Position numbers and translations under genes: made by a program. DNA of 64,000 bases from NCBI GenBank assembly GCA_036172245.1, contig JAYWIR010000001.1:10912001-10976000 (forward strand). Direction: 5' to 3'. The DNA comes from Raillietiella orientalis. Taxonomy: Eukaryota. Shown here piece by piece: positions 1 to 56,100 of the stretch (within the stretch, counting starts at the first letter, position 1; each line of letters opens with the position of its first letter). The notes under the pieces are model-generated. The model did not search any database. It was given only the letters and a program-made list of their open reading frames with translations, and was not told where the DNA came from.

Positions 1-3000
1 CAATCTCACTCCAGAAAGTCATGGATTTAGAGCCCATTCGAAGGGAATGGACAAAGGAGAGGAAGACAAATGTCTTCAGGGCATCGATCTCCTGCCACAA
101 TGCCAGTGGCGCATCGAAAACTGTGTCCACATCGTCCAGTATGTCGGTGTAGAGCGCATGGCTCCGAATAGCATCGAAGTCCACAGGCTTTCCGAGATAG
201 TTGCATGTGCGAGCGTCTTTGAGAGCGGGTGTGGGATCGCCAGCGATCTCAAAAGACATCTGTCTGACTGTTCTGGGAGTGGACACGTCGTAGTGGAATG
301 AGGCACGTTTTCTGGCATTTATCGACAGCCCTAAACTCTAGAGATACAGCGCGTGTACTTGCAAGCTCTCGGCGTCCTTTGTTAAGACAACCAGGTCATC
401 CGCATAAGCTAGCAGTGTCACTCCGGACACTTTTGTCTTGATGCCCTGGCATGTGGGTTTTATGGCTACTTCGAACAGTAGTCCAGAGAGAGTGCGGCCC
501 TGCTTTACCTCACTAGAGATGTACATGGGCGGAGAGAGCCCGGTAGAGGTCAAAACCTAGGTAGGTGGTGTTGTCTGTGTACATGTCGCAAATCAGTTCC
601 ACAGAAGTGTTGCCTGTTCCGGCACAGTGGAACGCACAAGGAAGCTGTGAATGGGGGATCGAGGCAAAAGCGTCCTCTAGATCCATCCACGCCGCACAGA
701 GTGTGAGATGCTGCCTCCGGCTATAGTCCATGAGATGCGCAAGCACAAAGTTATGCTCTCGCACCCCCCATCGAAGGGAAAAAAAAATCCCCTTTCATGA
801 GGACCTATAACCGCGTTCCAGTGAATCCAATCTCGCATGCGCCTGGCCATGCATTTGGTAAAAATCTTGGTCAGCAGCTATGCCGAAGTCCCAAGGGAAC
901 GGCTGAAGGCAGGAGATGCACCGAAGAACTTGGAGAGGGTGCGTATGGATGCTTGCGGGGCCGACCCTGTGGGTATCCCGTTGAGGACAAGTCGAATCGC
1001 ACGTCTCCGATTCCTGCTATGTAGGCGCTGAATAGCCCTTGGGGTTGGATGGCAATCGATTGAAGCGAGAAGGAACGGAGGCGAAGAGCGTGTCGAATGG
1101 TCGTGTAGATGGAGAAGAGAGTTCGCACAGCCAGCCTCAACTGTCAATGGTCGGAGGACGCTGAGCTAAGTCATCTCGAGTTTGGGTAGCCTCGTCAAGG
1201 AATGCCACGGGACTCAGCGCATTGCGGGCTATCAAACAACGTTGTCCTCGACGGCGCCCTTGCACGCGTGCTCGTCCAAGGATGACTCGGAGCTACATTC
1301 TCCTAGGGGTGAGGCTCGCTTGCATCAACGAGCAGGACGAATCTGGATCCAGAGGACGGGCGGTGATCCTTGCCTCTGTTCAGATTCCCCGCTCTGAGGG
1401 TGGCGGGTCCGAGTACGCGTGGCCTGTGGATGGTTAGCATTGAGCGGCATTCGGCGGCTACGTGCTCGCACTGTTTGCCACTCCTGCTCAAGAGGCGGGC
1501 GGGGGCCGGCGGGACAGGCGGTTGCGCACGCTCAGATCTTGGTAGAAGAACCGTGTCTGGAGCGTCGCGCGACCCCTTCCGTGGGTCTGCTGGCCTACCT
1601 GTGCGAGGCCGCAGGTGGCCGCGCGCGACATCCTCACGGTAGTCTGACCGAGGCCGCGTGGCTCTATCAGCGCTGGGAGGCAACGTTGGCTGGCCGCCGC
1701 GGATGCGTGGTTGTTGATGCCGGCGTTCCTGTCTGCCCGGAGCATCATGCCATCATGCTACGGTGGTTGGAAAGCGCCTTCTGGTTATGGAATCGTTGGC
1801 CGCAGTTGGCAGCTGGGCAGACAAGTGGAGGAGGCAGAGCAAAGGGTCGAAGAGGTCTGGGGCCACAACGATGCCTCCACAGAGGAGGAGTTGAGTGCTT
1901 GTCGCACTGCCTGCAGATAAAGTAGGTTCCGTTGTTATCGGAATCCCGTGCGCGGTATGAATGTGTCGCCGGAGCGATCCTAGGACGCGTTTGGATTCCA
2001 CAGCATAGGAAGATCATCTGCATCCGGGGAGAGGGCAGGACACGCTGGTGGCAGTCGGGAGGTAGACAGTCAGCACGTCATCCTCCGACAGCACATAGTG
2101 AGGTGGCAATTCGAGTTGCGTGAACCTATTCTGCTCTGCGTGCTGGGTTCTGCCAGTTTGCAGCTCAGTCTGCTCCAGCTCAGTTGGTATGTCCTGTTGG
2201 GCCTCAGGTCGCGTTTCGGGTCCATTAGCACGTGATGGCTTGGATGCGATCGAACCTGGGGATTCGAGCAGTCACCCGCCTCCTCCTTTGCCCTTTTTGT
2301 TCGCCGCAGCGTACGTAAGCTGGAAGTACTGGAGGTGCTGGTTGCAGGCTTGGCACATCCTGGATGATCAGGTCTTGCCTGTGAGGTGGAGATTGGTGGT
2401 CGGAAAACTCCATTCCAGTCCGAGACGGAGACGCCTCGGTTAGCACGGAGTCATGGGGACTGCCTGTCTCATGCTGGCCGCATGGGCTAGGCAGGGTTAG
2501 CGGTCCTCTCGGCGCCGGCTACCGTATACCAACCGCTCAATATCAGCCTCGGGTAATGGGGATAGTGCTACCATAGGCCCAGCTCTGAGGCGCGGATCAT
2601 CCAGATATATCTCCGGAGTGGACGAAAGCACTGGGAGGCAGGAGTTTGATTCCGCAGGTGTGGCATGCAAGGGTGAGCTCGGCAGCGGGGGAAAGTCGTC
2701 ATCCAGGAGGGAACGTATAGGCGGGCGGGTGGTGGACTGCCGACACGGTGTCTCCGGCGATGGGGGCCTTCTACGTGTGCTGGGAGCACATTGCAAGCTT
2801 ATGCTGTCTGAGCGACTCAGAGCACTTGGGGTGCAGAGCATCGCTTCCGGTGGCTGGTCCACTTCCTTGGTGGCATCCCTGCCGCTCCAGACATCCATCT
2901 TTGTCGTGCAGAGGTGGGTGACGAAGGTCCCCGGCTGAGTAGAATCGTAGCGATTAATGAGTCCTCCGTAATATCCTGCAGAGCTTCATGCATCCGCCTT

Positions 3001-3740
3001 TGGGGGTCGGTTTTTGCGTGCCGCCACTTGAGATGCTGCCTTAAGAGGTGAGGTCTGTCAAACGATGCAGGACATTGCGAGTAACGGGTACGTAATGAAG
3101 GGAGAATGGATGACCGTGGGAGGTCATGAGGCCGGCAGAATTGAGGAGAGAAGGCCCGCTGATCGCCGTCGTAGAGGATGCATTTGGGGCAAACGTATCG
3201 AGGAGCATCGATGACCACCAGGTGGATGCTGGCTAGGTGCCCCTTGAAACTCCTATTGCGGTTCTTAGTGAGAGCCTCTGTGCACACGAACGTGCAGTCT
3301 GTAATAGGAGAAGGGCACCTCCCGTGGAGGGTCGTAGTCAATGAATAGTTGCCCACCACTTGATAGAAAAGTCGGTGGGCAGAACATGCTGGTATGCACG
3401 TTATTTTCAAAGCAACCAATGGGAGTTCGACGAGGCGAGGTACAGCCAATCAGCATGCTGCCTGCACATCGAGGAGCCAATAGGCTTGAACCGTCGGGAC
3501 TCGTTTTCCCGCGAGGAGCAAAAAAAAAGAGTCGGTGTGGCGGTGGTATTAGCCACCGGAGCCGCCAATCACCCATGCAGTTCTTGCGACAAATAGCCAC
3601 AGTCAAATGTAAGTGGTCGCGATGCAAATTTCTCCCAGTAACCCTCTTACCTTCCTGTCATGCATACTCTCTGGCTCCCCCACCATGGAAGCACACATGC
3701 GGGGGACGATTTTTGTCCACAGTTACCGCATCCCTTGTTC
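1..3740 (-). mobile_element. Decayed Utopia/NeSL-like (RLE-clade) non-LTR retrotransposon, 5' part (zinc fingers + RT)
   Basis: Frameshifted minus-strand peptides: C2H2-like fingers (YSQCPASFDRPHLLRQHLKWRH; CPAANCGQRFHNQKALSNH) and RT motifs EHNFVL..AWMDLEDAFASIPH, VKQGRTLSGLLF, LAYADDLVVL. Confidence 0.85.
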
Positions 3741-3781
3741 TTTTATTGAGACATTTAAGTATATATTTTTGCCTATTTTTG
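1..3781. repeat. Left arm of large inverted duplication (pairs with 6021-9798); runs off the window start
   Basis: Position 1 pairs with 9798 and 3781 with 6021. Mirror ORFs have identical translations (e.g. 2817..3449- = 6353..6985+; 2497..2898- = 6904..7305+). Confidence 0.97.
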
Positions 3782-3785
3782 AGAT

Positions 3786-4655
3786 GCGAAGTGGGAGGTT
3801 GACATAAAAATCTTCGGAAGGGAGAAGAAGATTGGAGAATGTTAGACGGGCCAGCTAACAGACGCTGCCACCCCGAGTACGCCTCCCAATGGACTTGTGC
3901 GCTGGGGCGCGCTGCTCGATGTTCCGAGTGAACATCTGAAGTGGCCCCCGGTGCTCATGAACAACTCCACCCTCCCCTTAAAATGGCAGGAGTCGGCTCT
4001 ACTATTGCAGCACTGCGGATTCCCCTGCAACGCCCACCGACACCACTGGACCTGGAGAGCGGTGAACCCCAATTGCGTTAGGTGTGGGGAACATGAGTAC
4101 CTCCCCCACCTACTTGTGGATTGTGTTTTCCTTCGACCCCTCTGGCTCCGCTTTGCCGCTGCCATCCGTATCCCCTGCGGTGACCCCACGGGCGATATGA
4201 AAGTCCTCTTCGTTCCCTCCGCCCTCCGCCCTGCGGCTTCGTTAGCAGCCCTGTGCTGCCTACGCGGGATCGTCGCCGCTTGGAGCAAGGCAACGGGAGG
4301 ACCTCGAGATAAGGTGCCATCCAGCGTGCCGCCCAATTTTTGGAGAGTGCGACGCGATGACGCCACCTGGATCCACGAATTCAGAGAGAGCTTTCCGGCA
4401 TCCTGCGAAGGATGCAACGGCCCCAGCAGCAACAGTGATCCCTTCCCGTACCCTCCTACGTTTTCTTGTCTTTTTGTTTAGCTTTTTTGTTTATGCCTGC
4501 TTCCCCCTGCTGCCGTGGAGCACCGCACCGGTCTGCGAACCGGTGACCCGGCAGGCTCTGTGTTTCTTCGTGCGTGGCTGGAGCACTGGTCCAGCCACGG
4601 GACGTCTTTGTTAAAGTTTGTAATAATAAACTCCCCGGCGAAACCCGCGTGAAAA
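3786..4655 (+). mobile_element. L1/Tx1-like retrotransposon 3' fragment (ORF2 zf-RVT + 3' UTR), copy A
   Basis: ORF 3897..4481 contains NCVRCGEHEYLPHLLVDC (zf-RVT-like). Ends AATAAActccccggcgaaacccgcgtgaaaa. Strongly similar to 20700-21290 (-) and 55245-55541 (+). Confidence 0.85.
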
Positions 4656-5142
4656 TCGAAAGCTTCGTGCAGACTGCAAGGGCTCCGGGAGAGTCTGATC
4701 CTTGGTGGCCTTCCCCTCCCTGGTAAGAGGAGAATCCTGGATTGTCTTGTCCCGCCACCGCAATCCTTGATTGCACCTGTTACTATGTGTTCGCGAGGAA
4801 AAAGTTTGCTTCCCTGGTTCTTCCGGGAAGAGCGTACGTTTGCTCCGGACTGATCACGGATTCAGCCACCCGCCCCAGTCGCTCCGCCTTCTGTTTGGCA
4901 AGCAACTTCGCATCCGATTCACCACTGTGATAGGTCTCCAGTTTCCGATGTTGCGGAGGTCTCCTCCCGAAGGGAGGAGACGTATTCTTGCTGACCGGAA
5001 CGAGTAGGGAACATCTCGTTCGCCGATCAGCAGTCCTAGTCGGTGCACCTTGGGGACCACAGCTTCCGCGAAGCATTGGTAAAGGCGGTCAAGCCGTCCT
5101 CCCCTGGTTCCCTACGCCTTTTAAGGTTTCCGATGGCGGAGA
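4656..5142 (-). mobile_element. L1/Tx1-like RT N-terminal fragment, copy B
   Basis: RSARIRLLPSGGDLRNIGNWRPITVVN / DAKLLAK..ERLGRVAESVISPEQTYALPGR; colinear with 55542-56045. Confidence 0.85.
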
Positions 5143-6061
5143 GCCTTTATCCGAACACATCAGACCAACATGAACAAATACGCCGACCTGGCTGCCCGGC
5201 TGCGTGAACAAGGGTTCTCCACAATCAACCAAGCAATTGTGGTTGGCTCATGGGACCCAGAAAACTTTTGTTTTCCATTTTGGGTTATTACAATAGCTGT
5301 TGCTGGAATGGTTCTGGAGAATCTTCCGCGGTTGTTTTTTTCTCCGTGTTTTTCACGGTTGTTCGGTGCTTTCTTCCGGAGGTAGAGCATTGTCCAGATC
5401 ATCTGGTTGGGCTGCGTTTCTCTTTTTTACATGCGCTGCATAGATGCTACTTGAAAAGCGAATGTTGGTGGCTACCATCCGCTGTCGTAGCTTTACAAGC
5501 TGTTTTTTACTCACTTTTTATTGGACTGCCTTCCCAGATCATCAGGTCTCTCGCTGGACAAATGTGTCGAGAGATGATCAAATTTTCCCGCGACATCTAC
5601 ATGTCACACATATCCGTGAGGGACAACACGATAGTCTGGTTTAATTGTATCAATCCCTCACGGAGCCATTCTCCCAAAGACACGCAAGTGTGGCCGTCCT
5701 GGAATTCCCACCCTCATCAGTCCTAACCCCTATACCTCCCGAGGTGGAAAGAAATGATGGAAGCCAAGATACGAATGAAACTCGCCACCCAACCGAAGAG
5801 GAGGAAGGATGGAGGAAGCTATCACCACCACCTCACCTCCCTGTAGCTCTATAAATTGTGATGTGATCCCCCGTAACATATTCGATTCCTTATGTCCGCC
5901 ATGTGTGCCAGGTCAAGCAGTGAACCAACTAGCAATTGCAAACGAATGACCGAACCATAAGAAAACCCTCTTCAACACCTTTAGAATATCCCATTGGATG
6001 TACCAAACTGTCTAAATTCCCAAAAATGGGCAAAAATATATACTTAAATGTCTCAATAAAA
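5143..6061 (+). mobile_element. Utopia/NeSL-like 3' end (RLE C-terminus + probable 3' UTR), interrupted by about 250 bp of unrelated sequence
   Basis: NKYADLAARLREQGFSTINQAIVVGSWDPEN (5170-5265), resuming as IGLPSQIIRSLAGQMCREMIKFSRDIYMSHIS (about 5520-5620), typical of the RLE-element C-terminus. AATAAA at 6055-6060. The right boundary is inferred. Confidence 0.7.
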
Positions 6062-9000
6062 GAACAAGGGATGCGGTAACTGTGGACAAAAATCGTCCCC
6101 CGCATGTGTGCTTCCATGGTGGGGGAGCCAGAGAGTATGCATGACAGGAAGGTAAGAGGGTTACTGGGAGAAATTTGCATCGCGACCACTTACATTTGAC
6201 TGTGGCTATTTGTCGCAAGAACTGCATGGGTGATTGGCGGCTCCGGTGGCTAATACCACCGCCACACCGACTCTTTTTTTTTGCTCCTCGCGGGAAAACG
6301 AGTCCCGACGGTTCAAGCCTATTGGCTCCTCGATGTGCAGGCAGCATGCTGATTGGCTGTACCTCGCCTCGTCGAACTCCCATTGGTTGCTTTGAAAATA
6401 ACGTGCATACCAGCATGTTCTGCCCACCGACTTTTCTATCAAGTGGTGGGCAACTATTCATTGACTACGACCCTCCACGGGAGGTGCCCTTCTCCTATTA
6501 CAGACTGCACGTTCGTGTGCACAGAGGCTCTCACTAAGAACCGCAATAGGAGTTTCAAGGGGCACCTAGCCAGCATCCACCTGGTGGTCATCGATGCTCC
6601 TCGATACGTTTGCCCCAAATGCATCCTCTACGACGGCGATCAGCGGGCCTTCTCTCCTCAATTCTGCCGGCCTCATGACCTCCCACGGTCATCCATTCTC
6701 CCTTCATTACGTACCCGTTACTCGCAATGTCCTGCATCGTTTGACAGACCTCACCTCTTAAGGCAGCATCTCAAGTGGCGGCACGCAAAAACCGACCCCC
6801 AAAGGCGGATGCATGAAGCTCTGCAGGATATTACGGAGGACTCATTAATCGCTACGATTCTACTCAGCCGGGGACCTTCGTCACCCACCTCTGCACGACA
6901 AAGATGGATGTCTGGAGCGGCAGGGATGCCACCAAGGAAGTGGACCAGCCACCGGAAGCGATGCTCTGCACCCCAAGTGCTCTGAGTCGCTCAGACAGCA
7001 TAAGCTTGCAATGTGCTCCCAGCACACGTAGAAGGCCCCCATCGCCGGAGACACCGTGTCGGCAGTCCACCACCCGCCCGCCTATACGGTCCCTCCTGGA
7101 TGACGACTTTCCCCCGCTGCCGAGCTCACCCTTGCATGCCACACCTGCGGAATCAAACTCCTGCCTCCCAGTGCTTTCGTCCACTCCGGAGATATATCTG
7201 GATGATCCGCGCCTCAGAGCTGGGCCTATGGTAGCACTATCCCCATTACCCGAGGCTGATATTGAGCGGTTGGTATACGGTAGCCGGCGCCGAGAGGACC
7301 GCTAACCCTGCCTAGCCCATGCGGCCAGCATGAGACAGGCAGTCCCCATGACTCCGTGCTAACCGAGGCGTCTCCGTCTCGGACTGGAATGGAGTTTTCC
7401 GACCACCAATCTCCACCTCACAGGCAAGACCTGATCATCCAGGATGTGCCAAGCCTGCAACCAGCACCTCCAGTACTTCCAGCTTACGTACGCTGCGGCG
7501 AACAAAAAGGGCAAAGGAGGAGGCGGGTGACTGCTCGAATCCCCAGGTTCGATCGCATCCAAGCCATCACGTGCTAATGGACCCGAAACGCGACCTGAGG
7601 CCCAACAGGACATACCAACTGAGCTGGAGCAGACTGAGCTGCAAACTGGCAGAACCCAGCACGCAGAGCAGAATAGGTTCACGCAACTCGAATTGCCACC
7701 TCACTATGTGCTGTCGGAGGATGACGTGCTGACTGTCTACCTCCCGACTGCCACCAGCGTGTCCTGCCCTCTCCCCGGATGCAGATGATCTTCCTATGCT
7801 GTGGAATCCAAACGCGTCCTAGGATCGCTCCGGCGACACATTCATACCGCGCACGGGATTCCGATAACAACGGAACCTACTTTATCTGCAGGCAGTGCGA
7901 CAAGCACTCAACTCCTCCTCTGTGGAGGCATCGTTGTGGCCCCAGACCTCTTCGACCCTTTGCTCTGCCTCCTCCACTTGTCTGCCCAGCTGCCAACTGC
8001 GGCCAACGATTCCATAACCAGAAGGCGCTTTCCAACCACCGTAGCATGATGGCATGATGCTCCGGGCAGACAGGAACGCCGGCATCAACAACAACGCATC
8101 CGCGGCGGCCAGCCAACGTTGCCTCCCAGCGCTGATAGAGCCACGCGGCCTCGGTCAGACTACCGTGAGGATGTCGCGCGCGGCCACCTGCGGCCTCGCA
8201 CAGGTAGGCCAGCAGACCCACGGAAGGGGTCGCGCGACGCTCCAGACACGGTTCTTCTACCAAGATCTGAGCGTGCGCAACCGCCTGTCCCGCCGGCCCC
8301 CGCCCGCCTCTTGAGCAGGAGTGGCAAACAGTGCGAGCACGTAGCCGCCGAATGCCGCTCAATGCTAACCATCCACAGGCCACGCGTACTCGGACCCCCA
8401 CCCTCAGAGCGGGGAATCTGAACAGAGGCAAGGATCAACGCCTCGTCCTCTGGATCCAGATTCGTCCTGCTCCTGTTGATGCAAGCGAGCCTCACCCCTA
8501 GGAGAAATGTAGCTCCGAGTCATCCTTGGACGAGCACGCGTGCAAGGGCGCCGTCGAGGACAACGTTGTTTGATAGCCTGCAATGCGCTGAGTCCCGTGC
8601 ATTCCTTGACGAGGCTACCCAAACTCGAGATGACTTAGCTCAGCGTCCTCCGACCATTGACAGTTGAGGCTGGCTGTGCGAACTCTCTTCTCCATCTACA
8701 CGACCATTCGACACGCTCTTCGCCTCCGTTCCGCTGCTTCAATCGATTGCCATCCAACCCCAAGGGCTATTCAGCGCCTACATAGCAGGAATCGGAGACG
8801 TGCGATTCGACTTGTCCTCAACGGGATACCCACAGGGTCGGCCCCGCAAGCATCCATACGCACCCTCTCCAAGTTCTTCGGTGCATCTCCTGCCTTCAGC
8901 CGTTCCCTTGGGACTTCGGCATAGCTGCTGACCAAGATTTTTACCAAATGCATGGCCAGGCGCATGCGAGATTGGATTCACTGGAACGCGGTTATAGGTC

Positions 9001-9798
9001 CTCATGAAAGGGGATTTTTTTTTCCCTTCGATGGGGGGTGCGAGAGCATAACTTTGTACTTGCGCATCTCATGGACTATAGCCGGAGGCAGCATCTCACA
9101 CTCTGTGCGGCGTGGATGGATCTAGAGGACGCTGCCTCGATCCCCCATTCACAGCTTCCTTGTGCGTTCCACTGTGCCGGAACAGGCAGCAACACTTCTG
9201 TGGAACTGATTTGCGACATGTACACAGACAACACCACCTACCTAGGTTTTGACCTCTGTCAGCTCTCTCCGCCCATGTACATCTCTTGGGGTGAGGTAAA
9301 GCAGGGCCGCACTCTCTCTGGAACTGTCTGGAAGTAGCCATAAACCCACATGCCGCATCAAGACAAAAGTGTCCGGAGTGACACTGCTAGCTTATGCGGA
9401 TGACCTGGTTGTCTTAACAAAGGACGCCGAGAGCTTGCAAGTACACGCGCTGTATCTCTAGAGTTTAGGGCTGTCGATAAATGCCAGAAAACGTGCCTCA
9501 TTCCACTACGACGTGTCCACTCCCAGAACAGTCAGACAGATGTCTTTTGAGATCGCTGGCGATCCCACACCCGCTCTCAAAGACGCTCGCACATGCAACT
9601 ATCTCGGAAAGCCTGTGGACTTCGATGCTATTCGGAGCCATGCGCTCTACACCGACATACTGGACGATGTGGACACAGTTTTCGATGCGCCACTGGCATT
9701 GTGGCAGGAGATCGATGCCCTGAAGACATTTGTCTTCCTCTCCTTTGTCCATTCCCTTCGAATGGGCTCTAAATCCATGACTTTCTGGAGTGAGATTG
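6021..9798. repeat. Right arm of large inverted duplication
   Basis: Reverse complement of 1-3781; near-identical apart from small indels clustered at about 8390-8740 and 9130-9360. Confidence 0.97.
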
Positions 9799-10180
9799 AC
9801 AACATTCTCAAGAAAGCGCTCCAAGAGATCCTTCCGCTGACGCAAAAGCCTCCTCGACGGAGTATCTGTACGGCTGTGTGGCCCGAGGATCCCTCCTGGG
9901 CATGCTGATCCTGGTGGAGGAGGCTGATATCGTGGCCACCGACTCCGCGTTTAAACTCTTAACGTGTCCTGACGCGGTTATTCGTCAGTTCGCCAGAGAC
10001 TCCCTGAATGAGGCCATCCGGGCAAAAGAGCGACAACAGCCAGATGCACAATTCTCCTCGGCATATCTGAGCGGGGACCGCGCTCCACCCCTACATCACC
10101 AAACAAGGGTTCCTGCAGACTTTTGGTCCGGTGTCCGGAAAGCCTCGAAGAGACTTGGCATTCAGTGGAACTACTCCCAC
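6062..10180 (+). mobile_element. Decayed Utopia/NeSL-like non-LTR retrotransposon (5' UTR, zinc fingers, RT, thumb), 3'-truncated by a Tx1-like fragment
   Basis: Same finger and RT motifs as the left arm, plus YLGKPV..APLALWQEIDALKTF..WSEIDNILKKAL and GMLILVEEADIVATDSAFKLLTCPD, characteristic post-RT segments of this clade. Many stops and frameshifts. Confidence 0.85.
6173..6396 (+). promoter_or_regulatory. Putative Pol II promoter motif cluster in the element 5' region (mirror copy at 3406-3629, - strand)
   Basis: Octamer ATTTGCAT 6173-6180; ATTGG at 6233, 6321, 6352, 6382; E2F-like CGCGGGAAAA 6289-6298; CHR-like TTTGAA 6391-6396; ATG at 6415. Confidence 0.45.
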
Positions 10181-11579
10181 AGTGCACATATTTGAGGGCT
10201 ACGGACGCCTCTTCGGGGGCATGGCCGCAGCGCGAGTCACCCCGAAAGAAAATGCGAAACTCCCCCACAAACTAGAGGTCGCAAGCGAGTCGGTTGACCT
10301 GTGGTGTGTGGGGAAGCCACGGTATTGTGGCTACTGCGATGCAGTAGGTCACCTCCGAAAGAGGTGCCCGAACATCGAGTGCTACATGTGCGAGGAGAAG
10401 GGCCACGTCCGTCGTGTGTGCCCGAAACGCCCCACCCCGATTCCCCCGGCCGCCAAAAACGAGCAAGGGAAACGCGCGGGGAAAGAAAAAGTGCAATTGC
10501 GGGAAATTGGCCGAGATCAGCTGCCATTACCCCAATCCCCAAAACCGGCGTCGGAGGACAAGGTCCCCGAAACCGTAGAGGGAGAAGAGGGCTGGCAGCT
10601 TGTCAAAGCCAAAAAAGTAAAAAGGGACAGAAGTGTCCCGAAAAAAACGGAGAAAAACGCGACCGGAGCAAAAGCGAAATCCGTGCCGCGCGTAAAAACT
10701 CTCCGTGAGTGCACGGTGACGCTGGAGCGCATTAACGTTCCTGCCGACACCACCCGAGGCGATACGCCTTCAACCGCCGTTCCCGGCGCGATCGATGCGC
10801 GCGAAGGCGCACCTCTGCGCAAGCAGAGGGTCAGCCGCGCGACAAGCTCGCCGACAGCGAGGACGCCGCCTTCGAGAAGGCCGCGGAGGAGCTTGCGGCA
10901 ACGCTCGCAGAGAGCGAGAACCCCTCGCGGAAGGGACTGCGAAGGCCGGCACCGGCGAAAATGGCCCCCGCAGGCGAGTCCGACCGGGAGGCCGGAAGTG
11001 CATCCTCCTCCGCGGAAGCACCTCCACGAAAATCGGGACGAAAGTCCCAGAAATCCCGAAGGTGCATTCCGCCTCCGAGCGAGGGAGATGCAATGGGGAA
11101 AGGTGTGGTGGACGGCAGCGTGGGAGCCCAAGACGGGCATCTCCCACGTTCGGAAGCCGACGACCAGGCGACTCCAATGGAGGAGGGTGCCCAGGGGAGA
11201 GCAATGCCCCCTACATCCGTCCAACCTGAACATCCCGCACCCATGGAGGTGGGCGTACAGGTAGGCAGAACACCGCCTTCTCATGAGGAGCCGGACACGT
11301 CGGCACCTAAGAAGGATGGGGAGTTGGTGGGCGAGACGCCAACCCCGTCCAGCGACCCGCCCCAACAGGTGGCGGGACCCCCACCGCCAGGTTCCCAGGC
11401 ATAACACCTGGACTCGCCTGTCGCCGTCGGATCCGCGTGGTCTGTTGGAACGTCAACGGGCTGCGCGACACACACAGCCGCCACCCTGCGTGACTTCGAC
11501 CTGGCGCTTCTGCAGGAGATCCACGTGATCCCCGCAGGAGACGTCCAGGAGATCGAAACGATCGCGGGGGGTCGGTTGT
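10180..11579 (+). mobile_element. L1/Tx1-like fragment, copy C: ORF1 (two CCHC gag knuckles, frameshifted low-complexity tail) and the start of the ORF2 AP endonuclease
   Basis: CGYCDAVGHLRKRC and CYMCEEKGHVRRVC in ORF 10131..11264; IRVVCWNVNGL...DLALLQEIH at about 11430-11525 (APE motifs WNVNGL / LQETH). Confidence 0.85.
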
Positions 11580-13090
11580 TTATCACCCGGGTGCGCCGGG
11601 GCGTTTATTGAAAAACTATCCGGGAACAGAATTCCCGGACAAACGATACAGAAGAGACGAAGGGGGTGGGATCCCCGACACGCAGGTCGGTATACAAAAA
11701 GTCCGGAACGCGAGGGAGGGGACCACAAATACACTAGTATAAAAGATAAAAATAAAGATATGGGGAGGGTAGGGGACAGGGGTCTTTGGTACGGCCGGTC
11801 CTTCCTTTCAGAACCGGCGATGGATGCCGGCGATCTCTCTCCTCACGCCCTCCGGTAGATGGGCCCACTTGGCAGCCGACGACATGTTCGCGCTGGCTAA
11901 TCCGGTGGGCTGACGAAGGATGGCCAGCTTCTCCAACTCTCGGTGGGCCTTGTCGATGGCGCGGGTGCAACACACGGTTGCGACGACAGCACCTAAAGAC
12001 AGGCCGCCTGGCGTGAAGAAGCGGCGCATCAAGTCTCTCGCGGTGTCCCCCTGGTGCAGGAGAGCCGAGGGCAGCCTCCGCCACAGTCCTTGGAGGGCAC
12101 CGCAGTCCAGGAGCAGGTGCGGGAGCGTTTCCACTTCCCCGCACCGCTTACAGTTTGGGGAGACAGCTCCCCCGGAAACACGGTTCGTCCGCTGGTTGGA
12201 GTGAAAACCCCAATGCACCAGCATGGTGACGTCCTGTTTCCAAGTTAAAGGGAACACGGAAGTGTTCAAACAGGAGGGAGGGACCACAAGTTCTTCGGGG
12301 GGCACACTCAAGTGTTCACTCCACCGAAGGAGTCCCTTCGGGATGTGGCGAGGCGTGGCGGCGTCTGCCAGCTCGCAAGTCCTCCAGCCTCCTATGGGTC
12401 GTGTTCCTCCTGCGATGGTGCAGACGACCTCCCACCTCGCCGGTTGGCACCTGTCATCTCTTGCCCTGAGGGCTGACAGCGCGTCGGCGAGGGGGGTGAC
12501 GGCCAGGCGAGTCCGCTTCTCCTGGCTGTTGCACACCTCATCCACCGTGCAGTACGGGGAGAGGTGAGCGCAACGGAGTTCCAGAAGGGAAACATCCTGG
12601 TGCTTTGCCCAGGCATGCAACGCCTCCTGCCGCCAGGATTCAAAGTTCGTTGGGCGGCAGGAGATCCATTCCTGGGCTGCCAGGAGCCGGCAGAGGGGCT
12701 TCAACGGGAAACCGAAGCTTCTCGTGGCGCGCTCCGTATGCGGCCGCAGCGACAGAAGTCCATCGCTGCCGGTGCAGCGCCGCAGGAGCAGGCGCGCGGG
12801 AGCGCACCACGGAGTGGACCAAAGGTTGGCGCACAGGGCCAACATTCGAAGCTGCACCTGCAGCTCGATTCTCTCCAGCGTCAGGATGCCTAAGCCAGCA
12901 TCCCGCCGCGGAGCCGCCAAGTCTTTGAGGCGGATCCTGGACCTCGCAGGTCCCCACAGAGCGTTCCTCAACAGGCTGTGCGCTTGGAGCTTGGCCGAGT
13001 GGGGGGGCGGGAAAACAAAAAACAGGGGGCGCAAGAGGGGGGCAAGGAAGGTGTGCCTACCGGGCCGGGCCGAGTCGGGCCGCGTGCAAA
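11580..13090 (-). mobile_element. L1/Tx1-like 3' fragment, copy D (ORF2 C-terminal 408 aa open at 11808..13034, plus 3' UTR)
   Basis: LWG..RIRLKDLAAPRRDAGLGI and PNCKRCGEVETLPHLLLDC; 3' end AATAAAcgccccggcgcacccgggtgataa. Confidence 0.88.
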
Positions 13091-17900: not shown

Positions 17901-19028
17901 GATCGGTAGGGTGGCAGCTCCTGCATCTGCGTTCTGCTTGCATGCGCGGAACATCTCTTCTTTACACGGGGGGGTCTCTCGCGCAAGAAGACATCGTGTT
18001 CTCTGAGGACAGCTCAGAGAACAAAACGTTTCGCAGCCTTTGGCTGCTTCAAGCAGTCAGAGGATGCTTGTCTGCCGGGAATCGCTCGAGGCTATTCTCG
18101 GCTGACCAACTGACAAGACTGAAAGGAGGAATCATTCATTCCGTATTATTTTTATGTCATTGTTTCTTCGGCAGGCCTATCCGGGAAGCAATGTCTGCTA
18201 CCTGCTTTTCAACCACGGGCTTCGAAAAGAGACCGAGTCACACTGGACCATTGGAGTGGAACTCATAAGAAAGCTTCTTATAAAATTGGAGCTCTCTAGT
18301 GGCAACGAGGGGAAAGTGACTTTGGCCAACTGAGCACTTTGTGTCATTTTCATCAGCAGTAATACATTTGGATGTGCTATTATTGTGTGCTTTTCTTCGT
18401 GGCGACGCCAAATTTGAGAAGAATCTTTCCGTTGATTTTGATCAAAGCAGCCATGGGTTGGTTGGGTTTTCCGCCACCACACGTCAGCATGCAGATGCTC
18501 GCTTACCGACCTCAGGCAATCCTCGCTAGTCCGAGATCAACTCGCTGTACCCTTAGGAGGGATTCTGCCATTGTCGGCTCACTCGAAGCGCGCGACACAG
18601 TCAGGCGACGGCCGCAGGTTGACCTCATACGCAGTCAGCTTCCTGCAACCGGATGGTGCACAAAATGATGGTCCATGGAAGGAAAGGGATCCCCCATTCC
18701 GTCGACCTCCGACATTTTCCAGACTGCCGCACAAGGTCGAGGAACCGACGTTTGGTTTTCAGACAGAGGATTCGTGGTCGTGCGCACTGCCGGGAGTCCG
18801 ACACATTCCAGGGAACACCGCCAGCAACGCAAGCACCGCTAAGCAGTGTCGAAAAAACTGTTCTTGTGACCGACACGTCCGTTGTTTGTCCCTCATAGCG
18901 CGTTCGTGAGAAACCCGTTGATCTGCGGAGGCACTCCCGTTCCCGAGATCCGTCTCTCCCCTTTCTTTTCTTTTTTTTAAGGCCAGTAACGACCTCAGAA
19001 GTCACCGTCACCATTGGCCTAGGATGAT

Positions 19029-20680
19029 GAACAACCGGTTATGCCAAGTCATTTATTAGATAAAACAATAAAAATACATTGGTGTGGTGGAACTCTAGGT
19101 TCCACCACTTGCAACGAACCTTCCGAAGATCAGTTCGTAGGTTCTGGAGAAATCTGCTTCGAGGAACGGAGGGGGAGGATGGAGGAAGAAATCAGTGTAC
19201 GCTGCTAGACCTCCTCCTCTGCATCCTGTTCAGGATGCTGGCAAGTTCCGTTCGTGCCTCGCCCAGGTGGGGCCATCTCGAGGCGGTCTTCGGGAAGATT
19301 CACGCTCAGTGGATGGAGCGCCTGCCATTTCGGTATCTTCTACCGGCGTTCTAAGCCGCCGTGATCCCGCGAGGACAGCAGAGCACGTCCAGGGACGCGG
19401 GTGGAGGCTGCGCTGTACGCGCGAAGATAAGGCAGCAAATGTCAGGGGTCACCCACCAGGATTCCTAGGATAGTCGCGAAGCGATCTCAAAATGATCGGA
19501 GGGCAACACAGTCTAACAGCAGGTCCGAGAGAGTCTCCTTCTTCCTGCACCTGACCTACTGAGCACCCATCCTCCCCTTGCGTCCAGTGGCAAAGGCGCG
19601 CTTTGCACAGGATTCCCCCATACGCCACCAGCAACGCCCACTCCAGCCACTTGAGGGAAGAGTGCCACTGTTCCCACATGCTGGATGCCAATTCCACTTC
19701 TCCGGGAAGATGCCGAGCAGCTCTCCCCAGCGTAGAAGTCTTTGGAGTGGAACACTTGAGACCGCCGCTTCTGTCCCTTCCCGAGTTGTCCATGCCAACG
19801 ATAGTTTCTTCTTTGCTTCCACGCAGCAAATCTCTTACCAACACCTTGCCAAAATTGTACTGTCCCTTGCGTCCCTTAGAAAGGGCAGCACTGTGTCAAG
19901 CGGAGTGGATGAGGTCCATCTTCTTCTGCGGGTCGAGGACGTCTATGCCTCGTTGCAGGCAGGTGTACTTCGTCTTCCTCGCGCCACGGATCTTTCCCCA
20001 GGCGAAGACCGATTCCTGAAGGCAGGTGGTGCAGTTTGCGGAGAGACAGAAGATGCAGGTTTTCTTCACCAGGGCAACCATCTGGCAAAGTTGGTATCCG
20101 CAACGCCTGAGCAATCTCTCGCGAGCGACGAGGAGGGAGGTGAGTCCCTCGCAGCTGATTGCAATCTTTGCGAGGAGCTGTGTTTTTGCGCATTACAGCG
20201 CGGTCCACGCTCTCGCCGCGAGGCCAGGTCTTATGAACTGGTTCTGACTCTCCATCCTGTCCAGCGAAAGGAGGCCCAGTCCACCATCCTTACGCGGAGC
20301 ACACAAGTCTTTGAGTCTTTGAGTTGGACTCTGTTTCCACAGGGCTTCCCTCAAAAGATCCTCGGCCCCTCTCTGTCTGTCAGGAGGAGCGAGGCAAACT
20401 ACAAGCAGGGAGCGGAGGAGGGCGGCTTCCAGCGAGTTTCACATCTCGGCCAGTCGCGGCGAGCAAAAGCTGCCGTGTGGGAACGGGCCGACCGCCATCT
20501 GTACTTTTTCGAGAAGGACGGACCGGACTTCTGCTATGCGGAAGTCCACCAACGGAACGCGAAGGTACCTGAAGTACCAGCACGTGGAGATTCACAGGTA
20601 GATGCAGTCCGACCATCCACGTTCCACGTCTCATCGACCGGTGCCAATGACGACTTCTCCCTGTTCGCCTGACGACCTGG
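19029..20680 (-). mobile_element. L1/Tx1-like 3' portion, copy E (RT thumb to 3' end)
   Basis: RKDGGLGLLSLDR segment at about 20260-20300; homology to 53385-54800; 3' end AATAAAtgacttggcataaccggttg at 19032-19057. Confidence 0.8.
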
Positions 20681-20699
20681 GCTCGTTCTTCCATTTACG

Positions 20700-21490
20700 G
20701 ATCCAGGTGGGGCCTCCGCGACGCCCTCCTCAGGAATTGGGCGGCGTCCTGGATGGCATCTTTATCGCGTGGTCCTCCCGTAGCCGTGCTCCATGCGGCG
20801 ACGATCCCGCGAAGGCAGCACAATGCTGCTATCGAGGCCGCTGGCTGAAGGACTTCGGCAACGAAGAGGGCTTTCAATGCGTCCCTGGGGTTGCCACAGG
20901 GGATACCGATGGCCGCGGCAAAGAGGAAGCAAATGGGCCGAAAGGCAACACGATTCACTAAGAGGTGGGGGAGGGACTCCCGTTCCCTTCACCTCACACA
21001 GTTGGGATCGACCGCTCTCCAGGTCCAGTGGTGTCGGTGGGCGTTGCAGGGGAGTCCGCAGTGCTGCAATAGTAGAGCCGACTCCTGCCATTTTAAGGGG
21101 AGGGTGGAGTTGTTCATGAGCACCGGGAGCCACTTCAGATGTTCCATGGGAACATCGAGCAGCGCGCCCCAGCGCACAAGTCCATTGGGAGGCGTACTCG
21201 GGGTGGCAGCGTCTGTTAGCTGGCCCGTCTAACACTCTCCAATCTTCTTCTCCTTTCCGGAGATGGTTGCTTTAACCTCCCACTTCGCCGCAACATCGCT
21301 GTCCTGATCTTCCACTAGGGAGGCCAGCGCAGCAGCGAGGGGGGTTCTTCCTGACCACGCTCGCTTCTTCGGATCCTCCAGGATCTCTCGGAGCGTGCTA
21401 CTTCAGAAGTACCCAAACAGGAACCGTCGTTCCTGTTGTGTGCGTTGCATGCCGCACTGTCCCACGTGCGAACGGTTTCCTGCAATTAAA
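20700..21490 (-). mobile_element. L1/Tx1-like ORF2 C-terminal fragment, copy F
   Basis: RWGALLDVPMEHLKWLPVLMNNSTLPLKWQESALLLQHCG..NCVR, nearly the same as copy A (3897..4481). Confidence 0.85.
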
Positions 21491-23804: not shown

Positions 23805-24800
23805 GAATCTTCCTGAGGACCTCCTGGAGGTGCCCCCACCTGGGCACTATCCGGACGGAACTTGCCAGCATCCTGAACAGGATGCCGGAGACGCCTGGCA
23901 ACGTACCGTGATCCCTTCCTCGATTCCCTCCCCCCTCCCCATAGGTGCGGGAAACGGGAGTCCCTCTCTCACCTGCTTATTGACTGTGTTGCCCTCCGAT
24001 TCTTGTGATGCAATATGCAACGGCCCTTGGTGCACCGACAGGGAATCCCAGGGACGTGATGAAGCGCCTCCTTGTTCGACCTCCTCCTCCTGGTTTTACC
24101 CAAGACGGAAACTGACTCCTGCAGCCAGGCTATCCAGTTAGCTGTAGGGCAGGAGATCCTTCAAAGGCAACGATTTTTCAGAGCTGGGAGCCAAGATAGC
24201 TCAAACTTCGCCCGGTGGCCACGAATACCAGAGTCAGAATACCAGAGTCAGTCTTTCGCAACCAGCTGCTCGCTAAACAACAATTCGAGCCGGAGATCAC
24301 CATGCTGTGATCCACAACTTGGATGCAAGGGCGAGTCTTCTGATCTGGAGCTGAGGTTTCATCCTCTCCAGCGTAAGGAGACCCAGTCCACCATCCCTAC
24401 GCGTAGCCACCTCCCTGTCCCCAGAGGGATTTCCTCAAGAGGTCCTTGGTTCGCTTCCTGATGTTGGATGAGACGCGGCATACAAAAAGTAGGAGACGGA
24501 GCAGAGGAACCACAAACTCATTCCACACTGCGGCACGTTCCTGCAAGTAAAACCTTCCAACGCAGAATTCCCCCAAGGGAATTCCAAGGTACTTGAATCA
24601 CCCACCCGTGAGGATCCCCAAGCAAATCCAGTGCGACCGTCTGGGCCTCGTCGCGCCAATAGATGACTTCGCCCTGTTCGCCTCAAGGCCTGCACCCCGA
24701 CTTAGCAACTGGAAGTCCTCGAGTGCGGATGCCGGGGTTGTCATGGGGAGCAGCAGCAAAGATGTGGGCCGACACGACAGGCATACCGGGCGGATCTGAT
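23805..24800. mobile_element. Scrambled L1/Tx1-like fragments, copy G: + strand C-terminus and zf piece (23805-23990), - strand RT/thumb pieces (24050-24800)
   Basis: + strand: WRCPHLGTIRTELASILNRM, then HRCGKRESLSHLLIDC. - strand: KYLG, RRDGGLGLLTLER and WLQESVS, matching 54200-54970. Confidence 0.75.
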
Positions 24801-51277: not shown

Positions 51278-53131
51278 TCTTCTCACTTTTTCATGTTCCC
51301 ACTTTCCCATCCTTCTCCTCCCCCTCCTCTTTCTCCACATCCCGGTCCCTGCCGTGCCTCCCGAGAGTGAATACCACAGTACGGAGCCTCATCTGCTCGA
51401 AGATGCGGGGAGAGTCTCCCTGGTGTCGGAGTGGCGGCGCAGTGCCCCAGGACAACATGAACTTTCATTTCCCTTTTTGTTCCTTGTTTAGGTGATTTAC
51501 ACGAACAGAAAGGAGGAAGAAGAGTCAAGAGGGAACCTGCATTGCAGAGATGTCCGCTGCGCATCGCTTCAGTTACAGCATCCGCAGCAGACGTTCTTCT
51601 TGAGCTATTGAGAGTGACGTTCGAAATGATGTGCTTTCAGATTTTCGAGTGCTTGGTCTTCCTCGAGACCAAAGTGACTTCTTCCTTCTCTCCCTTCCTG
51701 GGTACCCTCCATCCCAGATCTCACTCCTGCATCTGAAGCCCTGATATGGTAATCTCTGCACGACTGCCCCCGGTGTTCCCCGACCATGCTCAGTTTCTCG
51801 ACCTGATCCAAGGGTCGCTACGGACTCGAGGACGTTGGGATGCGCCGACCGATTCTCAGGAGCACGGTGTGCCGACTGCACACCTCGGAGATAACAGTGA
51901 TGGTGAGGGCACACCTCTAAACGCGCAAACTCCAAAGCAGCGTGTGCGTAGCCGAATCCAAAAAAAATGCGGATAACAGTTGTGCAGTGCATGAATGTAC
52001 AATTCGTTAGAATACAATCGTACACTCCATGTAGGGTGAATGAAGCGACATTTTTCTGTATTTTTCTTTTTTCTGTCCGGCAGAAAATTTTCTTAAAGGG
52101 GTGGGGGAACACGTTGTTCCTTAGCCCCCTCCCTTCTATAGTGGAGTTCCAGAGCTTTCCGCAAGATGTCAGGGGAGCTGTCATTGCTTGAAGCAACCGT
52201 TCTGATGGGGAGGGCTTCTCAAAAGGTTACCGATTCGCCAAGAAGCCCAAAAGTAGACAATGCTATGTGAGGAGGGGGAAAAGGGGAGGATGGAACGAGC
52301 TCGCAGGAGTCCGAGGAGCCTCGATATGAGGATGGGACTCTGGATTGAGGAGAAGCCAGGTGCTGGACGATACGCGTAAGGCTATCGGAAAGAGGTAACA
52401 GTAAACCCGTGCGCTACTAAATTACGCTGTGCAATTATCCGGTAAGGACCGACGTCATTCACGACAGCCTCAGGAATCTTCTGGGAAACCGCAAATGGGG
52501 TTCTTGCTCGCGTTGTCCTGAAGGACGACGCGATATTGAACACAGAGAAGTTCGTGAAGCGAAAGAGGACCATCAGCAAGCTTTCTGGCCTTCCTGTAAC
52601 CGCTGCCTTCTGCTCTCTTTCGCACCTCCTAGAGCGCTCACCAATTGGATTTCCATCTGCCACATGAAGAACCACCCGTTCAGAAATTGAGGATGCCGAC
52701 AAGGACATCGAGGAAGGAGAGGAGTTCTTTGCCAGCAAGGGATGTGAGCTGCAGATTTGTGTCTCTAGATGCCAGAAAAGCAGGACTATTAGGCTGAGGC
52801 CACACGGAGCAGGAGACGGTAGAGGGATGCGTTATCACCTCTGCATCTGGTGTCCACTCCGCAAAGGTTTCTGGCGCACGAAAAAAGCGTGTGGTGCAAC
52901 ACACGCTGAGCAGGGCGATTCCACGTTCCATTGGGTCTGCGTACGTTCGAGCAAATTCAACGATGCGCATGGGTGTGCGTGTACGCATGCATGCCTATCG
53001 CTTCTTCGGAGTGAGGTCGACGCGTATCGGGCAAGTGTTTGGGCAATGCCCTAGCATTCCTCAGGGCAGCTTCTGGAACACGTGGCACGCTTCGCGTGCA
53101 ATGCAAGCAGCCCTCACGGGCGCCACGGTGT

Positions 53132-56100
53132 TTATCACCCGGATATGCCGCGGCATTTATTATTAAAATTTTCATCATAAAAATTTCATAATAAAGTCTC
53201 AACGTTATGTGAAGGCAGAACACGTGGTTCTGCCTGTCTTAACACACTTGCCGCTGCCGGCCCGCAGGCTTCTGAGGTCCACTATGGAGGCGATGGGGAA
53301 GGGAAAACCACAAAGGAAAATAAAAAATCAAACAAAAATCAAGGGAAGGGAAATGTTTCAGGAGAGGGGAGGGCTGGGAAGGGATCACTGTTCGCTCCGA
53401 GGGGTCCTCTGCATCCTCTTCAGGATGCGGACAAGTGCTGGACGTAATGTTCTTAGCCGGAACCATCGGGAAGCTTTCTCAATGTTGAGAGCCGCCCAGT
53501 GAATGGAGTTCCGAATGTTATGTCCTCTCCTGGACGCAGTCCATTTTTCCAGGATCCCGCGTATGCAGCAGAGAACTGCTACACACGCGGCTGCTGGCAG
53601 GGCGTCCTGCATCAGGAGGCGACGGAAAATGTCCTTCGGGTCGCCCCCGGGAATGTCCAAGATCGACAACAGTCGATCCCACATGGGTCGAAGGGCGGCA
53701 CACTCGATGATAAGGTGGAGAAAGGTCTCCCGTTCCCCGCACCCCGCACAATTGGCATCCACAGTCCCGAATGTCCAATGGGAGAGGCGTGCTTTGCAAA
53801 GGAGTCTCCAATGGAACACCAGCAGTGCCGTCTCCTGCCATTCCAGGGAGAGAGTACGACTATCCCAGCACGCTGGGGACCACTTCACCTCCTCCGGAGG
53901 TATGCCGAGTAGCTCGCCCCAGCGCCCTACTCCTCTAGACGGGACGCTCGGAGTCGCAGTGTCCGCTAACTCCTGAGTCGTCCACGCCTTCAGTGGTTTT
54001 CTCCCGCCTCGGATGAGGCAGGAAACTTCCCACAATGCTCATTCGTTGCTGTTCCTGATGTTCTTGAGGGAGGACAGCACGGGGACAAGGGTGGTCGAAG
54101 AAACTCACAGAAACTTCCGCGGGTTGTTGATTATATCCTGCAGGGGCTGTCGAGCGTTGGGTCCTCGACGGAGACAGTTGTACTCCACCTCGCTCGTGCC
54201 GTTGATCTTGGCCCACGCGGAAACTGACTCCTGCAGCCAGGCAGTGCAGTTTGCGGGGAGACAGGAGATCCAGGTGTTCTTCCTCATCGAGGCGACCATC
54301 TGGCGCAGGTCACGGCCACAGTTGCTGAGGCTGCGCTGGTATGCCACGAGGATCGAGGACAATCCTTCGCAACCGGTCGCTCTGCTGGCGAGGAGTCGTG
54401 CGGGTTCGCACTAGGGCGTCTTCCAAAACTTCGCCGCAAGGGCGAGTCTTCAGAACTGGAGCTGCCGCTCCATGCGCTCCAGCATCAGGAGGCCTAATCC
54501 ACCATCCCTGCGTGGATTGCACATGTCTTTCAATCGGACACGGGACCTCCCTGTGTCCCAAAGGTGTTTCCTTAGGAGGACTTCGGTCCTTTGTTTCATG
54601 ATCGGTGGAGGGGGCAAACAAAAAGTAGGGGGCGAAGGAGGGGGGCCGCGAAGGCGTTCCACACCGCGGCCCGTTCTGGCAAGTAAAACTTGCCGTCCCG
54701 GAACGGGCCGATCGCCAATTCCACTTTTCGGAGAAGGTACTTGATAACGGAACGCCAAGGTACTTGATGTACCCATCCGTGGGGATCCCCAACCGGATCC
54801 AGTCCGGCCGGCCGCCCCACGACGTATTCGTAATGACGATTTCTCCCTGTTCACCTCCAGGCCCGTCCCGCGGCGCAGCAGCTCAAAGAAGTCTTCGAGC
54901 GCCGATACCGGGGTGGACCCAGGGAACAGGAGAAGAAGGTCGTCGGCATAGGCTGACACGGCAGGCATGCCGGGACACGAGCTCGGCAGGGTTGCCAGAG
55001 TCTCCCTGTATGCCCTCAGCAGCAACTCGAAGTAGATGCTGAAGAGCAGGGGGCTCAGGCTGTCACCCTGCCTTATGCCACGGCGAACCGGAACGCCGTA
55101 CACGTGTTGGCCGCTGAAAGTAATGTTGATTAGATCGAAGCGCCAGCAGGAGAGCAGGTAAGCCAGGAAGAAGTCCGGAAATCCCAACTGTTTCAGGAGC
55201 TCCAGAAGGAGTTCCTGGTCGAGGCAGTCTAAAGCTTTCGAGATGGCCCCACCTGGATCCGCGAATACAGAAAGAGCTTGCGAGCATCCTGCGAAGGATG
55301 CAACGGCCTTAACAGTAACTGTGATCCCTTCCTGTACCCTCCCACTTCTTCTTTTTTTTTTGTTTAGTTTTTTGTTTTCCCCCTTCCCCCTGCTGCCGTC
55401 GTGGACCGTACCGGTCTGCGAACCGGTGACCCGGCAGGCTCTGTGTTTCTTCGTGCGTAGCTGGTGCAATGGTCCAGCCACTGCACGTCTTTGTTAAAGT
55501 TTGTTTTTATAATAAACGCCCTGGCGAAACCCGGGTGAAAATCGAAATCTTTACGCAAATCGACTGCAACAGCGAGGGCTCCGGGCACGGCTCTTCCACC
55601 AAGGGTTTCCCCTCCCTGGCCACAGGAGAATCCAGGATTCTCTTAAACTCCCTGTGCTTCGCGTTGTTGCAACTGCCACCATGTACTAGCAAGGAACAGG
55701 TTGGCCTCCATGGATCGTCCTGGAACAGCGTACGTCTGCTCCGGACTCACCACGGATTCCGCCACCCGTCCCAGTCGCTCAGCCCAAAGCTTGGCAAGCA
55801 ACTTCGCATCCGCATTCACTACTGTGATGGGACGCCAGTTGCCTACGTTGCGTGTGTCTCCTTGTTTTGGCAGGAGACGTACTTTAGCTGACCGGAACGA
55901 CATGGGGACATCCCCTTGTTCTCGGATCAGCGTGCATAGTTTGTGCACCAGGGGCTACCAGCTCCGCCGCGAAGCGTTGGTAAAATTCCGCGGGCAGGCC
56001 GTCTTTATCTGGTGCCATACGTTCTTGAGCTTTCCGATGGCAGAGATGATCTCCTCCATCGAGAAAGGCTCCTGCAGGTGTTGGCGATCTTCCTCCTTCA

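Follow-up and report, generated by a model that had tools for sequence, protein, structure and literature searches.

Two antisense LINE insertions at one nucleotide of reverse transcriptase motif A point to a target-specific subfamily

The locus analyzed here raises the question of why two copies of one LINE subfamily should end, both in antisense, at the same nucleotide of the reverse transcriptase (RT) genes of related elements. Within the window, by which we mean the whole 64-kb stretch of DNA under analysis, two out of two termini of the subfamily adjoin the same position of RT motif A. The reading that we consider probable is that the subfamily is a target-site-specific LINE aimed at the codons for motif A in related LINEs. 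The evidence base for this reading consists of two junctions in one 64-kb window, and the reasoning is that insertions into the same nucleotide and in the same antisense orientation, provided that they are independent, imply sequence-specific targeting. The argument turns, hence, on what the junctions are, on whether the two events were separate and on what else might have brought them to the same place.

The two inserts, copies A and I (Table 1), are 5'-truncated copies of a single non-LTR subfamily. Copy I aligns with positions 4353-4655 of copy A at 86.3% identity by BLAST (262 of 300 aligned bases the same, 87%), and the minus-strand segment 20699-21288 likewise matches copy A at 86%. The 3' UTR of copy A ends in AATAATAAACTCCCCGGCGAAACCCGCGTGAAAA, and the 3' terminus common to both copies, the 19-mer GGCGAAACCCGSGTGAAAA, occurs twice in the 64-kb window even if up to three mismatches are allowed, two or more occurrences being found in none of 100 shuffled sequences. 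When the final 150 nt of each copy are folded as RNA, two hairpins are common to both, but the z-scores are only -1.5 and -2.4, and we base no structural claim on them. Copy A also retains the C-terminus of ORF2 in an open frame (3846-4481) with a CCHC zinc finger, in which the pattern C-x2-C-x7-H-x4-C is visible and which the zf-RVT profile matches with E = 0.0012 at 19.9 bits, below the Pfam cut-off of 27.5. On its 5' side this copy is cut at 3785/3786 by the left arm of an inverted repeat that belongs to another element. A full-length copy of the subfamily was not found in the 64-kb window and its endonuclease is thus not seen there, the domain being absent from copies A and I, which are both truncated.

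A third fragment, copy C, has lost its 3' part and is uninformative as to the 3' junction. No RT-like sequence was found beside its approximate 5' end, the limits of this copy being uncertain, and its 5' neighborhood gives a weak hint that not every copy of the subfamily sits in an RT gene. At 20680-20699 copy C joins, in the same orientation, the RT of element D (19026-20677), a 5'-truncated element resembling host H. The remaining 3' part of copy C was not found downstream of this fusion; it is no clean nested insertion but either a deletion or a chimera.

Table 1. Inserts, host elements and target sites in the window
Feature	Position	Strand	Description	Basis
Copy A	3786-4655	+	3' part (870 bp) of the subfamily	BLAST
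Target remnant, site 1	4656-4666		TCGAAAGCTTC; antisense of codons E-A-F-D (first two bases) in motif A of host B	
Host B	4656-5143	-	5'-truncated, decayed RT fragment, from ..GNWRPITVVN.. to ..LHEAFD, ending at the junction	tblastn, BLASTN
Copy C	20699-21288, reaching further 5' to ~21600	-	Third fragment of the subfamily	86% identity to copy A 3786-4374
Host H	53131-57254 (5' limit approximate)	-	Decayed LINE, interrupted by several frameshifts and stop codons	Translations, Pfam
Target-site duplication, upstream copy	55228-55238		TCTAAAGCTTT	
Copy I	55239-55541	+	303-bp 5'-truncated copy, 3' UTR and last codons	BLAST
Target-site duplication, downstream copy	55542-55552		TCGAAATCTTT	

At the first site the plus strand runs through ...GGCGAAACCCGCGTGAAAA up to position 4655 and then reads TCGAAAGCTTCGTGCAG, and at the second it runs through ...GGCGAAACCCGGGTGAAAA up to position 55541 and then reads TCGAAATCTTTACGCAAATCGAC. 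Both copies adjoin TCGAAA on the antisense strand of an RT-bearing element, and, translated on the minus strand, the flank of site 1 gives ..SLHEAF(D) and that of site 2 ..VAVDLRKDF(D). Past copy I, host H continues with KALDCLDQELLLE.., and KxFD is legible on both sides of the insert. Within the K-A-F-D codons of motif A, the junction thus follows the second base of D, to within some 3 nt. This tolerance comes from the TC that follows GTGAAAA, which may be derived from the element (an alignment of five termini gives GTGAWAAWC), so that the junction can be placed only within about 3 nt; its position is nonetheless identical at both sites whichever way the TC is assigned. A first-pass annotation of this DNA had described two GTGAAAA ends lying antisense in motif A codons, and the flanking sequences, their translations and the splitting of the RVT_1 domain in host H all bear this out. 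The palindromic core that it placed around the junctions stands in part: AAAGCTTT is perfect in the upstream duplicate at site 2 only (55231-55238), whereas downstream of the inserts the sequence is AAAGCTTC at site 1 and AAATCTTT at site 2. As for the insert lengths, the figure of at least 870 bp for copy A agrees with our 870 bp, but the 297 bp given for copy I becomes 303 bp by BLAST.

The identity of the two hosts rests on protein and nucleotide matches. With the N-terminal RT part of host H as query, tblastn finds host B at 4660-5143 (44-70% identity, E = 1.5e-40), and BLASTN aligns host B with 55565-56021 at 72.9% identity; a continuation of host B beyond motif A was not found in the 64-kb window. 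Host H comprises an endonuclease-like region, an RT split by copy I, a putative zf-RVT finger (E = 4.6e-5 and 24.4 bits, below the Pfam cut-off of 27.5) and a 3' UTR that ends in ..GGGTGATAAAC. The Pfam RVT_1 profile matches host H on either side of copy I, at profile positions 2-55 upstream and 106-191 downstream (E = 4e-11 and 4.5e-6), and it is in the gap between these two stretches that motif A belongs. The motifs ..IAGDF.. and ..RIDH.. in host H may be endonuclease-like; a Pfam search of two host H fragments for the apurinic-type endonuclease domain returned no match. The C-termini of copy A and host H share 45% amino-acid identity.

Site 2 is a true insertion. The 11-bp target-site duplication that flanks copy I matches at nine of its 11 bases (P = 1.3e-4 at fixed offset), its two copies differing at the other two; at site 1 the 5' junction of copy A is destroyed, so that no duplication can be checked there. 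The downstream duplicate has TCG and the upstream one TCT, a difference that, in this single case, would be compatible with a priming RNA bearing some read-through or terminal bases at its end. The interrupted sequence also has an uninterrupted counterpart in public run X1, where a contig of 279 letters, 87% like host H, lies on 55110-55225 and 55540-55702 (116 and 163 letters, 36 of them different). The 314 bases that it skips correspond exactly to the length of the insert (303 bp) and the duplication (11 bp) together, and the contig represents a member of the family, paralogous or orthologous, whose site is empty. X1 represents a related organism at best: it contains 6% of the sampled words of positions 1-10000 of the window, and among its 31 contigs on 55089-55988 none is 95% or more alike. 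Read depth from X1 is unbroken across 55541/55542, and among the 8 of 33 pieces listed no contig could be demonstrated to bridge the 3' junction of copy I. Finally, host H has only two close relatives in a set of 1.84 billion representative proteins, P0001 (66% identity) and P0002 (74%), both from metagenome contigs, and each of them runs through VDLRKAFDCVDQ without interruption.

The evidence favors the view that copies A and I inserted in independent events, which lends support, in part, to the targeting that the first-pass annotation had inferred. Site 2 has a duplication of its own and an empty-site contig, the 5' truncation points differ (copy A extends over at least 870 bp, copy I over 303 bp bounded by its own duplication), and the inserts are far more alike than their hosts. 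Between the inserts the K2P distance is 0.139; between the flanks of hosts B and H, 361 of 485 bases are identical (74%), with a K2P distance of 0.313, and the divergence of inserts and flanks differs by Fisher's test with p = 1.2e-5 (p = 9e-4 for transversions alone). GC content and CpG density in the inserts are similar to those of the flanks. The 11-bp duplication at site 2 and the variable 5' truncation (303 bp as opposed to at least 870 bp) together make up the signature of target-primed insertion.

These same data bear on the alternative, raised in simpler form by the annotation itself, that an insert-bearing host was duplicated or retrotransposed as a composite and that the insert was later partly deleted in one copy. 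A single ancestral insertion would account for the shared junction and orientation, and the region indeed abounds in repeats that have been rearranged, one of them the near-perfect inverted duplication that surrounds site 1. It predicts, however, equal divergence of inserts and hosts and no private duplication, and is thus considered unlikely: the divergence between the hosts exceeds that between the inserts more than twofold, neither the 11-bp duplication of copy I nor the exact 314-base skip in X1 is what a later internal deletion would leave behind, and a host with a broken RT would be unable to amplify on its own. We regard this history as very improbable. Identity between the two loci falls right at the junction, where host B has a 10-nt gap relative to host H, and gene conversion, which would have moved flank together with insert, was likewise set aside, no such movement being seen.

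If the two insertions were separate, their agreement might still be a coincidence of random nesting in a window dense in nested LINE fragments, or else a product of misassembly. Neither has much to recommend it. By a rough estimate of our own, an insertion somewhere in about 5 kb of host-family DNA would strike the same nucleotide and strand once in some 10,000 times, and the two loci lie 51 kb apart with sequences that differ, which speaks against a duplicated assembly error. Chance and misassembly together are scarcely credible to us as an explanation.

How far the preference extends can be judged from the occupancy of the window and from the sibling elements of the same clade. A tblastn search with the N-terminal RT part of host H identifies only two loci in the window, B and H, with an RT that bears motif A, and both are occupied; the other clade members (elements E and D, a fragment at 24095-24759 and copy C) are 5'-truncated and devoid of motif A. 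Five 3' termini of the clade (4625-4655, 11578-11609, 19026-19057, 53130-53161 and 55511-55541) share a module made up of AATAAA, a short hairpin-like GGC..CCG(G) and GTGAWAAWC, with no poly(A) tail, and the core pattern of this module has five matches in the window against an expected 0.16. The three sibling termini, those of E, H and D, have this module but unrelated flanks, and the flanks of H and D gave no match in tblastn maps against the LINE proteins of the window. Hence, the shared flanks are special to the subfamily of copies A and I and no general artifact of the clade.

The main rival to sequence-specific targeting is a loose hot spot, in which a short or structural cleavage preference (the near-palindrome AAAGCTTT together with terminal microhomology) would suffice, most copies would lie elsewhere and the hits in RT genes would reflect the frequency of the motif in a LINE-rich region. 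The core is in fact short and nearly palindromic, the end of the element and the target may have TC(G) in common, copy C lies without RT beside its 5' end and the junctions number only two. Against this, the two junctions coincide exactly in position and have the same orientation, the likeness between the flanks of sites 1 and 2 reaches beyond the 8-bp core (TCKAAAGCTTYRYGCARA), and three near matches to the target 11-mer (at 31294, 33062 and 61469, with one mismatch each) are unoccupied. We therefore deem a loose hot spot unlikely, if less so than the other alternatives.

Searches outside the window added no further junctions. A metagenome scan for the 19-mer terminus gave 40 loci. The AATAAA module precedes none of them and their flanks are unrelated throughout, and we read them as chance matches rather than as termini of the subfamily. 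The 22-mer spanning the junction had no match in genome contigs and none in viral contigs. Protein word searches with the sense ORF of copy A and the antisense 3' UTR peptide, both against longer proteins, and with the antisense ORF that spans the site 1 junction, scored nothing.

Under sequence-specific targeting, copies A and I would be independent target-primed insertions in which the endonuclease and the 3' end of the RNA select a defined sequence. This target would be approximately TCKAAAGCTTT with neighboring bases, that is, the antisense of the K-A-F-D codons in RT motif A of related LINEs. The host-sense strand would be nicked after ..AAAGCTTT(C/A)GA, give or take 3 nt, and the nicked 3' end would then prime reverse transcription of an element RNA ending in ..GUGAAAA(UC), either through 2-3 nt of microhomology or because the RNA carries read-through target bases. 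In rDNA- and snRNA-specific LINEs, read-through target bases at the 3' end of the RNA may guide priming. A cut in the other strand 11 nt away would give rise to the 11-bp duplication, and 5' truncation to the unequal lengths of the inserts. The positions of the nicks, the role of the endonuclease and a genome-wide preference are what we infer from the junctions. Such a site would be an abundant and persistent landing place, since constraint at the protein level keeps motif A codons alike in diverged families.

A plain consequence of each insertion is that the RT of the host copy is broken, but that disabling siblings should be the point of the targeting is speculation. It is possible, and we put it forward tentatively, that the subfamily belongs to a 'hyperparasitic' LINE lineage dedicated to the motif-A (KAFD) codons in the RT genes of other LINEs. 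The need of the victims for a working enzyme would preserve the target, providing the lineage with a self-renewing safe haven, and each insertion would knock out a competitor. The targets of LINEs so far comprise host RNA genes, microsatellites, telomeres and a few transposons. If the idea is correct, the target here would be maintained by selection on mobile elements themselves, and the system would constitute a clean case of competition of transposon against transposon. More generally, site-specific LINEs serve as models of retrotransposon target choice and as starting points for targeted gene insertion.

The clade to which these elements belong bears on the comparison with known systems, and the 'Tx1-like' label of the first-pass annotation can be taken as tentative only. 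Searches of host H against solved structures (PDB) do not discriminate between clades, matching R2Bm at 4e-12 and human L1 ORF2p at 1.5e-10. Among 20 HMMER relatives of host H that were looked up, the six with an organism name all come from flowering plants, the two closest relatives being from metagenomes; the nearest named relatives are thus plant LINE-like proteins. Tx1 is described as a clade of animals (PMC4494074), and the plant relatives of host H, as judged by sequence likeness, lean towards L1 and away from Tx1, the subfamily itself having no RT in the window.

Insertion of LINEs into transposons is not in itself new. PMC4494074 describes target preference in many Tx1-clade families and lists Tx1L in the piggyBac-type Tx1D, Tx1-Mar in Mariner-N4_AMi, Tx1-8_Crp and Tx1-4_AMi in LTR retrotransposons and Tx1-9_AMi in Harbinger, target specificity being taken there as more than 20% of flanks alike. 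Transposons are also listed among LINE targets in the introduction of PMC5035012, and Zepp L1 elements are described as inserting into existing Zepp copies in PMC8226300 (citing Higashiyama 1997). Our subfamily resembles the transposon-targeting Tx1 LINEs in having a putative zf-RVT-type C-terminal finger, a defined position in another mobile element, often an opposite orientation and no long poly(A) tail. It differs from them in that its target would consist of the catalytic RT motif codons of related LINEs and not of a DNA transposon or LTR element, and in that the nearest named relatives are from plants. With Zepp and ZeppL, of the L1 clade in green algae, it shares the entry into existing LINE copies and nested, 5'-truncated 3' ends (in Zepp, as arrays). 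Zepp, on the other hand, targets its own copies and forms tandem, centromere-linked clusters, according to PMC8226300, whereas the inserts described here lie antisense at one motif A nucleotide of other, diverged families, and no tandem 3'-end array of the Zepp kind was seen in the window.

The rDNA- and snRNA-specific elements R1, R2, Keno, Mutsu and Utopia have in common with our subfamily a conserved multicopy landing site and precise junctions. Their targets are host RNA genes under host selection, whereas here it would be selection on the enzyme of other transposons that keeps the target. A literature search of main article texts found no description of a LINE that targets RT-motif codons. 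Given the precedents of the Tx1 families and Zepp, the behavior is known and the kind of target would be new.

Several further features of the window deserve mention. At both sites the RT frame of the host runs on without a stop for 58-59 codons into the insert, where it reads the antisense of the 3' UTR (minus-strand frames 4478-4861 and 55367-55642). The resulting peptide, FH[AP]GFA..GSPVRRPVR.., bears a weak likeness to the RT stretch expected after motif A, and its GSPVRRPVR resembles RT motif B (GVPVRRGIR) in a roughly collinear place. Its score was reached in 1 to 28 of 1000 shuffles against three 66-residue targets, and Pfam gave no match for it. That the 3' UTR might be a captured RT fragment was dropped and the likeness judged to be probably due to chance, given that the 3' UTRs of copies A and I align with sibling E (hairpin, T-rich tract and terminus) and that the five termini share their end module.

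A U2 snRNA-like sequence, divergent in its 5' part, lies at 27465-27643 on the plus strand and scores 51.6 bits, slightly over the Rfam gathering score of 46. Other site-specific LINEs target U2 genes; no element was seen beside this one.

Around site 1 lies a near-perfect inverted repeat made up of two copies (1-3784, minus strand, and 6018-9798, plus strand) of another retroelement, which has C2H2-like fingers and the RT-like motif ..AAWMDLEDAFASIPH... Over 2380 nt the two arms (1405-3784 and 6018-8397) show about 100% complementarity. Site 1 falls in the 2233-bp spacer between them, towards which the 5' ends of the arms point, and it is the left arm that cuts copy A. The arrangement is a recent inverted duplication, a head-to-head insertion or an assembly fold-back.

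Sibling E is another LINE that lies antisense within a LINE, although the site is not the same. Its 3' end (at about 11578, minus strand), which closes with the same ..GGGTGATAAAC as host H, lies inside element F (10071 to about 11577, plus strand), at the start of a coding region in which WNVNGLR..LLQEIH is, we presume, endonuclease-like (..WNVNGLR..DFDLALLQEIHVIPAGDVQEIETIAGGRL, followed by E). Element F also has an ORF1 with CCHC knuckles.
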